Source of the DNA: Escherichia coli
GTDB taxonomy: Bacteria > Pseudomonadota > Gammaproteobacteria > Enterobacterales > Enterobacteriaceae
Reading direction: 5' to 3' (one strand)
Length of the DNA: 64,000 bases
NCBI RefSeq assembly: GCF_044647545.1
Contig: NZ_CP172818.1
Within the stretch, counting starts at the first letter, position 1; each line of letters opens with the position of its first letter. The notes under the pieces are model-generated. The model did not search any database. It saw only the letters and a program-made list of their open reading frames with translations, and had not been told where the DNA came from. This document shows positions 2,983-12,960 of the stretch, piece by piece. Position numbers and translations under genes: made by a program.

Positions 2983-3195
2983 TTGTCCCGTAAAATGACA
3001 GGAATTGTCAAAACCTTTGACGGCAAAAGCGGCAAGGGTCTTATCACCCCATCCGATGGTCGTATCGATGTCCAGCTTCATGTTTCAGCGCTCAATCTCC
3101 GCGATGCAGAAGAAATTACCACCGGATTACGCGTGGAATTTTGCCGGATAAATGGTCTGCGTGGCCCTTCAGCTGCCAATGTTTACCTTTCATGA
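2983..3195 (+). CDS. cspF: Cold shock protein-like CspF
   Basis: 70 aa CspA-family fold with degenerate RNP motifs; divergent partner of cspB. Confidence 0.9.
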
Positions 3196-8974: not shown

Positions 8975-9049
8975 CGCACCTCCAATATTGGTTTTCTCAA
9001 TGCTAATCACTCAAGAATCTCAAGTCAAGGGTTATTAAGATATCTAAAT

Positions 9050-9457
9050 ATGAACGAGAAAACTTTAGGTCAACGCATTAGAGAAAGACGTAAGCAGGTA
9101 GGCTTAAGTCAAAACGGTTTAAGCAAAGCTGCTGGCGTATCTGGCTCATCAATTTCATTATGGGAAAGTGACCATACAGCCCCGCGCGGGCAAAATTTGC
9201 ATCGCCTCGCCGAGGTATTGCAATGTTCACCAACCTGGATACTGTTTGGCGACGAGGACAAAACACCAGCTCCCCCTGTTTCACTCGATAGTGCCTTAGA
9301 CTTATCGGAAGATGAGTTAGAGATGCTGCGTTTGTATCGCGCACTTCCTAAATCAGAGCAACAAGCACAACTCAGCGAACTCCGCGCCCGCGTTGAGAAT
9401 TTTAATCGCCTGTTCACCGAGCTATTAGAGGCTCGCAAACGCTACAAGCATCAATAA
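9050..9457 (+). CDS. dicA: CI-like HTH repressor DicA (represses dicB operon)
   Basis: 135 aa, N-terminal XRE-type HTH (GLSQNGLSKAAGVSGSSISLWE). Confidence 0.85.
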   Translation: MNEKTLGQRIRERRKQVGLSQNGLSKAAGVSGSSISLWESDHTAPRGQNLHRLAEVLQCSPTWILFGDEDKTPAPPVSLDSALDLSEDELEMLRLYRALPKSEQQAQLSELRARVENFNRLFTELLEARKRYKHQ

Positions 9458-9649
9458 TCATCCCTTCACAAAATTTTAAAGCCTTACATTTCAATGTATT
9501 GGCTTTATCTTGCGCCAATACTTGAGTTTTCTCATCAAAAAACCTTGACGAAAAATAATGAGAAAACTAAATTACTTCCATCAAGACACCGCACGGTGTT
9601 CTCAGCAAACAGTTCCGCTACCCCGGCGTTAAGGGGAAATGAGGTCAGC

Positions 9650-9802
9650 ATGGATACTATCGATCTTGGCAACAGCGAATCTCTGGTATGTGGCGTGTTC
9701 CCCAACCAGGACGGTACGTTCACCGCGATGACATATACCAAAAGCAAAACGTTTAAAACCGAATCTGGCGCGCGTTGCTGGTTAGCCAGAAACACTGACT
9801 GA
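9650..9802 (+). CDS. ydfA: Small prophage protein, first gene of dicB operon
   Basis: Start MDTIDLG with GAGG RBS; ~50 aa. Confidence 0.65.
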   Translation: MDTIDLGNSESLVCGVFPNQDGTFTAMTYTKSKTFKTESGARCWLARNTD

Positions 9803-10179
9803 TGAGGCTGACGATGGAATTTAAAGATTTACCGTCTGATGTACAGAAAACAGCAGCTCATACATTGCATTCTGTGCTGCGAGAAATCGGGAAAGATATT
9901 GCAAGCGAGCCAGCAAAAGATCTGGCCCGGAAAATCAAGACCGCTTTCGTTGAGCTTTATAATGTTGGCACTGACTCTGAAACTGTCGAGACCAAGACCG
10001 TAAGTTCACCAATATTCTCACTTGAGCCAGGCGTATTATCAGGTGAAATATGCACCGAGATTTCCAGCGAACTGCTTCCGGTAATACGAGAAGCAATTTG
10101 CCGTCGCGGTTTGGATGGAAGTTACGATCATGACGTCCTGCAAGTTCTCAGGACAATGGTGACTTCACTGGGGATTTGA
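9802..10179 (+). CDS. Prophage protein spanning the ydfB-ydfC position as one 125-aa ORF
   Basis: Single continuous ORF; in K-12 annotation I recall two small genes here. Confidence 0.5.
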   Translation: MRLTMEFKDLPSDVQKTAAHTLHSVLREIGKDIASEPAKDLARKIKTAFVELYNVGTDSETVETKTVSSPIFSLEPGVLSGEICTEISSELLPVIREAICRRGLDGSYDHDVLQVLRTMVTSLGI

Positions 10180-10621
10180 TCCCTGCGTCCTCTAACCTTT
10201 TGATATAGCGGTCCTCCAAGAAGCGGTAAATTTTGTCGAAATCATCTTTCCCCTCTGTTTATTCAGAGGATTACAGGACCCGTAAGTAGCGGCATACATT
10301 TCAACCGTTTTATCAAAAATATAAGAGACAAATTCTTCTTTAGTCATATAGATTTCCTTCAATGGGTTATTCGGAAAGAAGGATACCACTTCGCCTGACG
10401 TGTTAAAAGCAGGCATACAACACGAAAGCGCACGGCGAAGTTCGTCTCACTGTACGGTGTCGTTAAATTTAATTCGACCGTGCGCTTCCGGTTGTGGCAA
10501 CCCGCGAAATGGCGCGGCGGTAAGTATGGCGGGGTTATTCCTTCCCCGTTGAGGACACCGAGTTGTCAGGTTGACCATACGCTTAAGTGACAACCCCGCT
10601 GCAACGCCCTCTGTTATCAAT

Positions 10622-10678
10622 TTTCTGGTGACGTTTGGCGGTATCAGTTTTACTCCGTGACTGCTCTGCCGCCCTTTT
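10622..10678 (+). ncRNA. dicF: DicF small regulatory RNA (ftsZ-targeting antisense sRNA)
   Basis: Sequence TTTCTGGTGACGTTTGGCGGTATCAGTTTTACTCCGTGACTGCTCTGCCGCCCTTTTT matches DicF as recalled, ending in hairpin plus T-run; exact processed ends not determinable. Confidence 0.85.
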
Positions 10679-10848
10679 TAAAGTGAATTTTGTGATGCGG
10701 TGAATGCGGCTGAGCGCACGCGGAACAGTTAAAACCAAAAACAGTGTTATGGGTGGATTCTCTGTATCCGGCGTTAATTGTTAACTGGTTAACGTCACCT
10801 GGAGGCACCAGGCACCGCATCACAAAATTCATTGTTGAGGACGCGATA

Positions 10849-11037
10849 ATGGAAACGTTATTACCAAACGTTAATACGTCTGAAGGTTGTTTTGAAATTG
10901 GTGTCACTATCAGTAACCCTGTATTTACTGAAGATGCCATTAACAAGAGAAAACACGAACGGAAGCTATTAAATAAAATATGCATTCTTTCAATGTTGGC
11001 CCGTTTACGTCCGATACAAAAAGGATGCTGGCAATGA
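10849..11037 (+). CDS. dicB: Cell division inhibitor DicB (MinC-dependent)
   Basis: 62 aa from METLLPNV; stop overlaps ydfD start (ATGA). Confidence 0.85.
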   Translation: METLLPNVNTSEGCFEIGVTISNPVFTEDAINKRKHERKLLNKICILSMLARLRPIQKGCWQ

Positions 11038-11225
11038 ATACAGCATTTGCACTTGTTCTGACAGTTTTTCTTGTTTCCGGAGAGCCAGTTGATATTGCAG
11101 TCAGTGTTCACAGGACAATGCAGGAGTGTGTGACTGCAGCAACCGAACAGAAAATTCCCGGTAACTGTTACCCGGTCGATAAAGTTATTCACCAGGATAA
11201 TAACGAAATCCCGGCAGGTCTTTAA
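11034..11225 (+). CDS. ydfD: Small membrane lysis/toxic protein YdfD
   Basis: 63 aa from MNTAFAL with hydrophobic N-terminal segment; translationally coupled to dicB. Confidence 0.7.
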   Translation: MNTAFALVLTVFLVSGEPVDIAVSVHRTMQECVTAATEQKIPGNCYPVDKVIHQDNNEIPAGL

Positions 11226-12199
11226 AACAGTTCCGTAATAAACATCCGATTTCATTCTTATATGCCAGCAATGGCAGGGATTTGTTCACCCTTAAATCTG
11301 TAATGAGGTAAAACAAAATGAGTAAAGTCTTTATTTGCGCCGCCATTCCGGACGAACAGGCAATAAAGGAAGAAGGTGCCGTCGCTGTAGCCACTGCCAT
11401 TGAAGCCGGTGATGAACGTCGCGCCCGCGCAAAATTTCACTGGCAATTCCTGGAACATTATCCGGCTGCTCAGGACTGCGCTTATAAATTTCTTGTTTGC
11501 GAGGATAAACCCGGTATACCCCGCCCTGCCCTCGATTCCTGGGATGCTGAATATATGCAGGAAAACCGCTGGGATGAGGCGTCTGCTTCCTTTGTCCCGG
11601 TCGAGACTGAATCCGATCCGATGAACGTCACTTTTGACAACCTAGCCCCTGAAGTACAGAACGCTGTCATGGTTAAGTTCGACACATGTGAAAACATCAC
11701 TGTTGATATGGTGATTAGCGCACAGGAATTGTTGCAGGAAGACATGGCAACATTCGACGGCCATATCGTTGAAGCGTTGATGAAAATGCCAGAAGTTAAC
11801 GCTATGTATCCGGAGCTTAAGCTGCATGCCATCGGGTGGGTTAAGCATAAATGTAAGCCTGGTGCCAAATGGCCCGAAATTCAGGCAGAGATGCGCATCT
11901 GGAAAAAACGTCGCGAAGGTGAACGCAAGGAAGCCGGAAAATACACGTCTGTTGTTGATCTCGCCCGCGCCAGAGCCAATCAACAGCACACTGAAAATTC
12001 AACAGGAAAAATCAACCCGGTCATTGCTGCCATTCATCGCGAATACAAGCAGACATGGAAAACACTGGATGACGAACTGGCCTACGCTCTCTGGCCTGGT
12101 GATGTGGATGCCGGAAACATTGACGGCAGCATCCATCGCTGGGCAAAAAATGAAGTTATCGACAACGACCGCGAAGACTGGAAGCGTATCTCGGCATCA

Positions 12200-12960
<761 letters not shown>

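Follow-up and report, generated by a model that had tools for sequence, protein, structure and literature searches.

The dicF-dicB-ydfD cluster of a Qin-like Escherichia coli prophage and the structured RNA around DicF

What is encoded at positions 10622-11225 of a 64,000-nucleotide (nt) stretch of the Escherichia coli contig NZ_CP172818.1 (hereafter the window), and what is the nature of the leader that precedes it? A preliminary description, made from the letters of the sequence, had placed here DicF, a small RNA (sRNA), together with the genes of two small toxic proteins, dicB and ydfD, and had proposed that the leader between an upstream open reading frame (ORF) of 125 amino acids (aa) and dicF may be structured RNA. 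Here we provide an answer to both questions: we are highly confident that the interval is the known dicF-dicB-ydfD inhibitor cluster and belongs to the middle of a defective lambdoid prophage's early-left (PL-type) dicBF operon, and we find that the second part of the leader, 10419-10621, is a conserved structured RNA. A 115-nt domain of that RNA, which we call element A, is the only part of the cluster of possible novelty.

Identity of the dicF-dicB-ydfD segment

The sRNA is found at 10622-10674 on the + strand, starting exactly where it had been placed; the outer coordinates of the preliminary description, 10622 and 11225, are both exact. Rfam family RF00039 matches 10623-10674 (+) over its full length (1-52 of 52) with 76.7 bits against a gathering score of 48 (E 3.6e-15), and the 53-nt DicF is present as an exact string in E. 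coli K-12 (53/53). Together with its intrinsic terminator and U-tail the feature extends over 10622-10679; in the minimum-energy fold the terminator hairpin has -15.9 kcal/mol and is followed by UUUUU. The next gene, dicB (10849-11037, +), encodes a cell-division inhibitor of 62 aa that is recognized over its full length by Pfam PF05358 (126.3 bits, cutoff 27, E 3.6e-37) and NCBIfam NF049927 (131.9 bits, cutoff 100). DicB is identical to WP_001317853 and to the copy in the lambdoid phage mEp460, and shares 54 of 62 residues with K-12 DicB; the 8 changes are mostly C-terminal, with four of them near the C-terminus. Downstream lies ydfD (11034-11225, +; 63 aa), a member of the lysis protein family DUF1482 (Pfam PF07358, 88 bits, cutoff 25) with 4 changes relative to K-12 YdfD (59/63 identical). 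No NCBIfam model matches YdfD, and RefSeq names the exact allele "DUF1482 family protein".

The two genes share the sequence ATGA, as had been noted: the dicB stop TGA (11035-11037) and the ydfD start ATG (11034-11036) overlap by 4 nt. The preliminary description had named altered DicF target pairing and disrupted frames as the findings that would speak against it. The 5' and 3' pairing regions of DicF are those of K-12, and neither the dicB nor the ydfD frame is disrupted, so the identification stands; the DicF, dicB, and ydfD matches cannot be due to chance. The surrounding DNA is equally well placed: 10150-11240 is 99.2% identical to the viable phage mEp460 (LR597641), and because every difference lies within 10257-10402, the segment 10403-11240 is base-identical. 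K-12 matches the window in two blocks only, one covering the promoter and ydfA (9576-9793, 90%) and one covering 10419-12084 (94.9%). The operon is syntenic, with its genes in the same succession, in K-12 and in other E. coli, and some part of a 9000-11400 query is matched by 4,771 of 5,426 complete E. coli genomes.

Three growth-inhibitory functions in one segment under DicA—DicF, DicB, and YdfD—are textbook for the dicBF operon as described in the K-12 literature. In K-12, DicF represses the messenger RNAs (mRNAs) of ftsZ, xylR, pykA, and manX, using different RNA ends for different targets (PMC5069750). DicB is a division inhibitor that works through MinC, and it also blocks ManYZ-using phages (K-12 literature); YdfD lyses cells by inhibiting IspG, and DicB counteracts this lysis, in a study that also mentions the partial overlap of dicB and ydfD (PMC8835842). 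The RNA processing is likewise described: the 53-nt DicF is made from the dicBp transcript by termination and RNase E cleavage, the RNase E dependence of its 5' end having been shown in K-12, and RNase III, cutting at +813/814 of the dicBp transcript, yields a 190-nt species (PMC10448788). On read-through transcripts RNase III also yields a 72-nt species (PMC9438474). Since all three products and the RNase III and RNase E processing of DicF have been published, the cluster is already known; in the window it is intact and ordinary, and its DicB and YdfD would have the functions of the K-12 proteins, as their sequence identity suggests.

Structured RNA around dicF

The spacer between dicF and dicB (10675-10841, +) forms a domain closed by a long-range helix. 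The core of the helix is a perfect 19-base-pair (bp) inverted repeat, 10684-10702 with 10813-10831, in a helix of ~35 bp that closes a 165-nt domain; the minimum free energy is -67.7 kcal/mol (z -5.9), and none of 200 shuffled sequences is as stable. The helix is kept in 39 of 39 unique variants upstream of dicB or of kilR, the latter from Rac-type and Stx phages. The published 72-nt DicF (PMC9438474) would end at ~10693, within the 5' arm of the 19-bp helix, and for this reason we take the long-range helix as the RNase III site for read-through transcripts. At the base of the helix, the predicted fold pairs the region of the terminator U-tail with the dicB Shine-Dalgarno sequence GAGGA (10837-10841). 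Rfam family STnc100 (RF02076) matches 10672-10881 with 40.1 bits, under its gathering score of 47; the spacer is probably a distant STnc100 relative below the threshold of Rfam membership.

A separate observation concerns the same spacer. The 5' pairing region of DicF, GGUGACGUU (10627-10635), is perfectly complementary to AACGUCACC (10791-10799), with room for 4 further pairs beyond a single mismatch; chance alone would give about one 9-mer of this kind per 750 nt. Conservation of AACGUCACC is seen, too, in Rac-type loci in which the sRNA has no DicF 5' pairing region.

Upstream of dicF, the 441-nt gap to the 125-aa ORF is as had been described, but the statement that it has no obvious coding capacity does not hold for its first part, where a 66-aa gene on the minus strand overlaps it. 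The suggestion of structured RNA is borne out for 10419-10621 only; 10180-10418 is a variable mosaic. The structured part was itself partly known before, as the region in which RNase III and RNase E process the 190-nt and 53-nt forms of DicF. It consists of three pieces—hairpin 1, element A, and a linker. Hairpin 1 (10423-10490, +) has arms at 10423-10435 and 10478-10490 that are 92% complementary and paired in the minimum-energy fold, and it is kept in Rac-type phages with a compensatory exchange of A-U for G-C. Counting 190 nt back from the DicF 3' end (10674-10679) leads to 10485-10490, within the 3' arm of this hairpin, which fits hairpin 1 as the site of the published RNase III cut that forms the 5' end of the 190-nt DicF (PMC10448788). 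The A/U-rich linker (10606-10621, +) is identical to K-12 and carries the RNase E cut that makes the 5' end of the 53-nt DicF, placed here from the DicF 5' end at 10622. Element A and the linker make up the first 137 nt, the 5' part, of the 190-nt species. In position, the structures of the window agree with the 190-, 72-, and 53-nt species of DicF known from the literature.

Thermodynamically, the pieces of the leader stand out only weakly (z-scores of -1.9, -1.4, and -0.9), so it is covariation, and not stability, that makes the case for structure. Element A (10491-10605, +) is closed by the 8-bp stem P1, 10491-10498 with 10598-10605 (GUUGUGGC with GCUGCAAC), and contains P2 (10502-10506 with 10513-10517), P4 (10530-10534 with 10544-10548), and S2 (10560-10568 with 10588-10596), all on the + strand. 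A further pairing, S1 (10524-10529 with 10575-10580, +; GUAUGG with CCAUAC), would make a possible pseudoknot in the modeled structure. In an alignment of 15 sequences, 96.3% of cells pair, compared to 36-55% with the partners slid, and 7 pairs change on both sides; in S2, 5 of 9 pairs are compensatory, and none of 500 shuffles reaches the observed values of pairing and covariation. Of the 464 P1 cells in 58 variants, 463 are paired; variation affects five P1 pairs, in one of which C-G is exchanged for U-A. The covariation spans five enterobacterial genera.

Element A is widespread and is found in changing surroundings. Its 19-nt core is present in >120 IMG/VR prophage contigs, and when a single genome was scanned for each species, copies turned up in E. 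albertii, in two species of Citrobacter, and in Trabulsiella, Serratia symbiotica, and Izhakiella. Across ~93 distinct flanking variants the element is almost invariant and the downstream sequence differs: it is followed by the canonical DicF, a shorter DicF, one of three other terminator hairpins, or, rarely, no terminator. The three other hairpins, as in the phages Ayreon and cdtI and in Stx2c phages, lack the DicF 5' region. Hairpin 1 and the terminator are the same in Rac-type phages, but only a mini-hairpin stands at the very point of P1 closure; element A thus has the character of an insert that a stem may or may not carry. The covariance model R1, made from the alignment, finds exactly one copy each in the window, the whole mEp460 genome, and the Ayreon locus. 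No second copy of the leader element was found in the window by blastn, nhmmer, or the covariance model; a match at 25558-25635 (14.9 bits, E 0.17) was taken as chance.

Hairpin 1 and element A have no match in Rfam 15 (E up to 10; window and related loci), no paper in a full-text literature search contains the element A strings, and neither antitermination nor the structure of the 190-nt RNA is taken up in the latest study devoted to dicBF regulation. We have not found element A described, and any novelty in the cluster would lie there.

Several features of individual copies are recorded here in their own right. In many variants the 3' strand of P1 reads CCACAACA (for example in Ayreon, locus L005, ~3105-3117); the window copy reads GCUGCAAC and lacks this motif. 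CCACAACA is the consensus target of the R1 seed of GcvB, used by the prophage anti-sRNA AgvB (PMC4104026). With many variants carrying CACAACA, we considered the anti-sRNAs AgvB and AsxR of enterohaemorrhagic E. coli prophages as relatives of element A; we rejected them because they are short (51-60 nt) and lie downstream of PR' (PMC4104026), and because the window copy is without CACAACA. In Trabulsiella (L134), Serratia symbiotica (L136), and Izhakiella (L137), the terminator-like hairpin after element A has a Shine-Dalgarno sequence and an ATG in its loop—a purine-rich GGAG and then (G)TAATGTTCT—and the mini-ORF would run into the 3' arm and the U-tract. In one IMG/VR contig (L017, UViG 651053022_000007, ~2415-2589), element A stops at GGGGTTATTC and continues into a 16S ribosomal RNA 3' end, a spacer, and a transfer RNA-like sequence; this contig looks chimeric.

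Proposed mechanism and competing explanations

The mechanism proposed below takes its steps of RNA processing and its functions from the K-12 literature, transferred to the window by sequence identity. The transcript of a repressed PL-type operon would undergo termination and processing, with DicF and a dicB-ydfD message as the products. RNase III would cut in hairpin 1, where we place its site, and release the 190-nt RNA; RNase E would then make its cut immediately upstream of 10622 and so form the 53-nt DicF, with a 3' end set by its own intrinsic terminator. Read-through transcripts would be cut by RNase III in the long-range helix, as we place it, into the 72-nt DicF and a separate dicB-ydfD mRNA. 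DicF would repress its ftsZ, xylR, pykA, and manX targets, DicB would block division via MinC, and YdfD would lyse cells via IspG inhibition. Until RNase III acts, the dicB ribosome-binding site may be masked by the long-range helix, and DicB synthesis would depend on both terminator read-through and processing. For ydfD, which has its own AGGA (11022-11025) 8 nt upstream of the ATG, we infer a partial translational coupling to dicB: the gene may be translated by ribosomes terminating at dicB, by loading at its own AGGA, or by both. Element A, as the 5' body of the 190-nt species, would most likely set RNA stability and the pace of RNase E maturation.

Several points must be counted against this account. 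The dicBF operon is recognized here by its sequence, and its expression is predicted; the repressor of the window is just 57% identical to K-12 DicA, so that repression of the promoter, as stated in the preliminary description, is assumed. The prophage is defective, with a truncated exonuclease, an IS2 insertion sequence remnant, and an integrase fragment, as in Qin. A simple terminator scan of the window did not list the DicF hairpin, as the interrupted stem and the 9-nt loop fall outside the rules of the scanner. Sequestration of the dicB Shine-Dalgarno sequence comes from a predicted fold, and the coupling of ydfD, also part of the preliminary description, is a prediction for a gene with its own Shine-Dalgarno sequence. 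As to element A, folded alone it is not unusually stable (z -0.88), and the strand of the S1 pseudoknot never varies, partly since the search pattern fixed it.

For the role of element A, the reading that we hold most likely, if tentatively, is that of a structured 5' body of the 190-nt RNA that sets its stability and its maturation pace by RNase E. A clearly less probable alternative, unlikely in our estimate, is a cis-acting RNA that controls read-through of the downstream terminator, either as an antiterminator like HK022 put or the Bacillus EAR element or as a switch responsive to a ligand or factor; in phages without an N protein it would then set the expression of dicB, ydfD, exonuclease, xis, and int from the early-left promoter. 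The position of element A suits this role—in nearly all of the ~93 variants and in four other genera it lies directly upstream of an intrinsic terminator of varying sequence, and in Ayreon-, Stx2c-, and cdtI-type phages it stands downstream of the annotated PL promoter by ~290 nt, ahead of the terminator and of every long gene of the left operon, with just a 39-aa ORF preceding it, which is the position of HK022 putL. No N-like protein was recognized in left operons that bear element A, and none is annotated in mEp460; the spacing from element A to the terminator (~9 to 60 nt) fits a factor riding on the polymerase better than an overlapping expression platform, and the size and possible pseudoknot of the element recall EAR. 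However, the put region of HK022 yields no match to the covariance model, nor does the PR side of mEp460 or the window yield a second copy; the resemblance to put consists of two short motifs seen by eye, and element A is missing from Rac-type phages, which share the hairpin, terminator, and spacer. K-12 carries element A, yet its dominant transcript ends at the DicF terminator, and read-through is seen only with RNase E inactivated (PMC10448788). Element A contains no segment complementary to the arms of the terminator; a riboswitch-type alternative pairing with these arms was considered and rejected, the only match by eye being of 5 bp and the spacing to the terminator variable. In its broadest form, control of read-through by put- or EAR-like antitermination or by conditional switching would make element A a new class of phage cis-regulatory RNA, found in lambdoid early-left operons across Enterobacterales; this we regard as a doubtful proposition.

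The conservation of 10419-10621 might also have a cause at the level of DNA, such as a stretch of homology that helps mosaic lambdoid phages to recombine with one another, or recent common descent. The block is nearly invariant within Escherichia and both of its flanks are mosaic and recombinant, a pattern that is also typical of the recombination joints of lambdoid phages; however, the other genera diverge with compensatory changes in P1, P4, and S2 (5 of 9 S2 pairs changed on both sides, 0 of 500 shuffles), and the Rac-type mini-hairpin at the closing point of P1 is consistent with the gain or loss of an RNA domain within a stem. We consider a cause of this kind very improbable. Still less credible is that the leader codes for small proteins on either strand: in element A, variants with CCCC and with CCCCC are both common, loops may be longer by up to 8 nt, deletions of 2 nt also exist, and no frame is kept; on the frequent 1-nt indels and loop insertions we rule the coding explanation out. 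There are indeed ORFs of 36-57 aa on both strands within 10400-10620, the mEp460 annotation has a 51-aa minus-strand coding sequence (CDS) across dicF, and 10148-10348 truly derives from a minus-strand gene; but the leader ORFs have GTG or TTG as start codons, none of them was found to have a ribosome-binding site, and the real minus-strand gene starts at 10348, well short of the conserved block. Given the covariation and the indels, both the DNA-level and the coding explanations are unlikely.

The finding of dicF, dicB, and ydfD adds nothing to published knowledge of dicBF; its value is the correct annotation of a toxic, normally silent prophage module. Element A, a by-product, may matter more, as a discrete, covariation-supported domain inside the 190-nt DicF precursor that is conserved from Escherichia to Serratia and Izhakiella. 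The precursor itself has reportedly been seen on gels since 1990 and is said to have been known for 35 years. There are two regulatory ideas here: element A may influence termination at the DicF terminator, and the dicB ribosome-binding site may lie hidden in the long-range helix until the RNase III cut. If either is true, it would explain how a lethal division inhibitor is kept silent yet inducible, and how the left operon is expressed in lambdoid phages that lack N. Control of read-through by element A, if true, would gate a division inhibitor, a lysis protein, and recombination and excision genes in phages without an N protein.

The operon, its prophage, and comparison with known systems

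The host prophage combines a Qin-like architecture with an mEp460-type early-left (dicBF) module and is of Qin/mEp460 type. Just upstream of the promoter region lies a gene for a DicA-family repressor of 135 aa (9050-9457, +), which the subfamily model NCBIfam NF007257, "transcriptional repressor DicA", recognizes with 238 bits (cutoff 101). The candidate dicBp (PL-type) promoter, TTGACG-17-TAAATT at 9545-9573 (+), was found by a consensus scan (9/12 matches); the K-12 RNase III cut at +813/814, carried over by the K-12/window homology map, predicts a transcription start at ~9574-9579, in agreement with this promoter. The first gene is a ydfA homologue (9650-9802, +; 50 aa, DUF1391; Pfam PF07151, 94 bits) in the block with 90% DNA identity to K-12. 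In place of K-12 ydfB and ydfC there follows the 125-aa ORF (9802-10179, +; 121 aa from the second ATG, 9814), which belongs to phrog_33007 (E 1.2e-82), corresponds to RefSeq WP_001320327, and has no match in a Pfam search. The ydfA stop overlaps the first ATG of this ORF (TGATG, 9800-9804), a second tight junction in the operon; the RefSeq start is the next ATG, 9814.

The variable 5' part of the leader (10180-10418, +) is absent from K-12, where homology starts at 10419, and its fold has a z-score of -1.39. In strain A1, 10198-10557 is deleted, and strain JBEHAAB-19-0176 carries an IS1 insertion at ~10365-10374. The minus-strand gene of 66 aa survives in the window as a frameshifted remnant (10148-10348, -; phrog_34441, E 1.5e-50; RefSeq and mEp460 annotation), and its CDS is intact in locus L003 and in mEp460. 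Compared with mEp460, the window lacks 1 nt near 10257, which changes the frame after residue 30, and the ORF that opens at the conserved ATG (10348) has 51 aa in the window and extends to 10192. The ATG is preceded, at 7 nt, by a good AAGGA. Homologues of the gene, including one from Cedecea, are constant in length at 65-66 aa even where identity falls to 54%; the minus-strand ORF "rac10" of Rac has no similarity to it. Other E. coli carry a different frameshift allele (P0012). Compared to mEp460, 10257-10402 has five single-base indels and two substitutions in 150 nt, and the next 840 nt are identical. The frameshift in the window may be a sequencing error, which we consider because of the four further single-base indels nearby and an odd poly-A tract at 12391-12450.

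Downstream of ydfD lies a truncated exonuclease gene (11318-12256, +), recognized in the ORF list by setting it beside the 2472-nt CDS of mEp460 and the pseudogene annotated in K-12; its product has 312 aa, compared to 823 aa in mEp460. With the exonuclease cut short and then followed by an IS2 remnant and an integrase fragment, the prophage is defective. The A-rich tract at 12391-12450 (~60 nt, >30 consecutive A) sits at the junction of the truncated exonuclease and the IS2 transposase remnant, and no complete E. coli genome covers at least 80% of 12050-12800; the tract could be an assembly artefact or a private insertion. On the right arm of the prophage, a cspA-type thermoregulator 5' untranslated region (Rfam RF01766, 158.8 bits) lies at 2451-2843 on the minus strand, as expected for the cold-shock-protein genes of Qin-like prophages. 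On the minus strand of phage Ayreon (L005), a C4 antisense RNA (Rfam, 540-627, 80.7 bits) adjoins isrK (652-728, 58.9 bits); the pair is on the PR side of the immunity region, inside a CDS annotated only as "immunity region".

Of the known systems, the putL and putR sites of HK022 resemble element A in being structured RNA in the early-left transcript of a lambdoid phage without N, with an intrinsic terminator closely after. In HK022, put suppresses terminators in the early transcript through the zinc-binding domain of the RNA polymerase beta' subunit. Element A shares with put a position upstream of a terminator, although put-like activity is putative, and two motifs, GCGCGGCGG and UCAGGNUGA (N is A in putL and U in element A). 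The two differ in build, put having ~72 nt and two stems and element A 115 nt with a modeled four-way junction and a possible pseudoknot; they also differ in number, with one put copy per early operon (PL and PR) and a single copy of element A in the window, mEp460, and the Ayreon locus. A homology of element A with put was considered on the strength of the motifs shared with the extracted HK022 putL and putR, but model R1 finds no match in the HK022 immunity region, and put homology is therefore not claimed.

The leader of kilR in Rac-type phages has hairpin 1, a DicF-like terminator hairpin, and the long-range helix domain directly upstream of a division-inhibitor gene in common with the window; it differs in that the next gene is kilR and not dicB, that a P1-like mini-hairpin stands in place of element A, and that its sRNA is without the DicF 5' pairing region. 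Two terminator hairpins upstream of kilR (L129, 2490-2544, and L130, 2452-2506) score 41.1 and 34.4 bits with the Rfam DicF model (gathering score 48) and look like DicF paralogues with a different 5' region. The STnc100 model scores Qin-, mEp460-, and Rac-type spacers alike at 34-44 bits (34.4-43.8 among related copies), all under the gathering score of 47.

The closest relatives are mEp460 and the Qin prophage of K-12. The early-left operon of mEp460 has the same ydfA, 121-aa ORF, minus-strand 66-aa gene, dicF, dicB, and ydfD; it differs in having the full 823-aa exonuclease, xis, int, and all late genes, whereas in the window the exonuclease is truncated and the 66-aa gene frameshifted. The Qin dicBF operon (ydfABC-dicF-dicB-ydfDE) differs from the window in ydfB, ydfC, and the first part of the leader, where the window has the 125-aa ORF and the remnant of the minus-strand 66-aa gene, and in its immunity genes—the window repressor is 57% identical and its cro-like gene of another type. 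The order of parts is the same: both have, in turn, the repressor, promoter, ydfA, leader, dicF, dicB, ydfD, truncated exonuclease, IS2 remnant, and integrase fragment, with DicF identical at 53 of 53 positions, 94.9% identity over 10419-12084, and the same ATGA overlap of dicB and ydfD.

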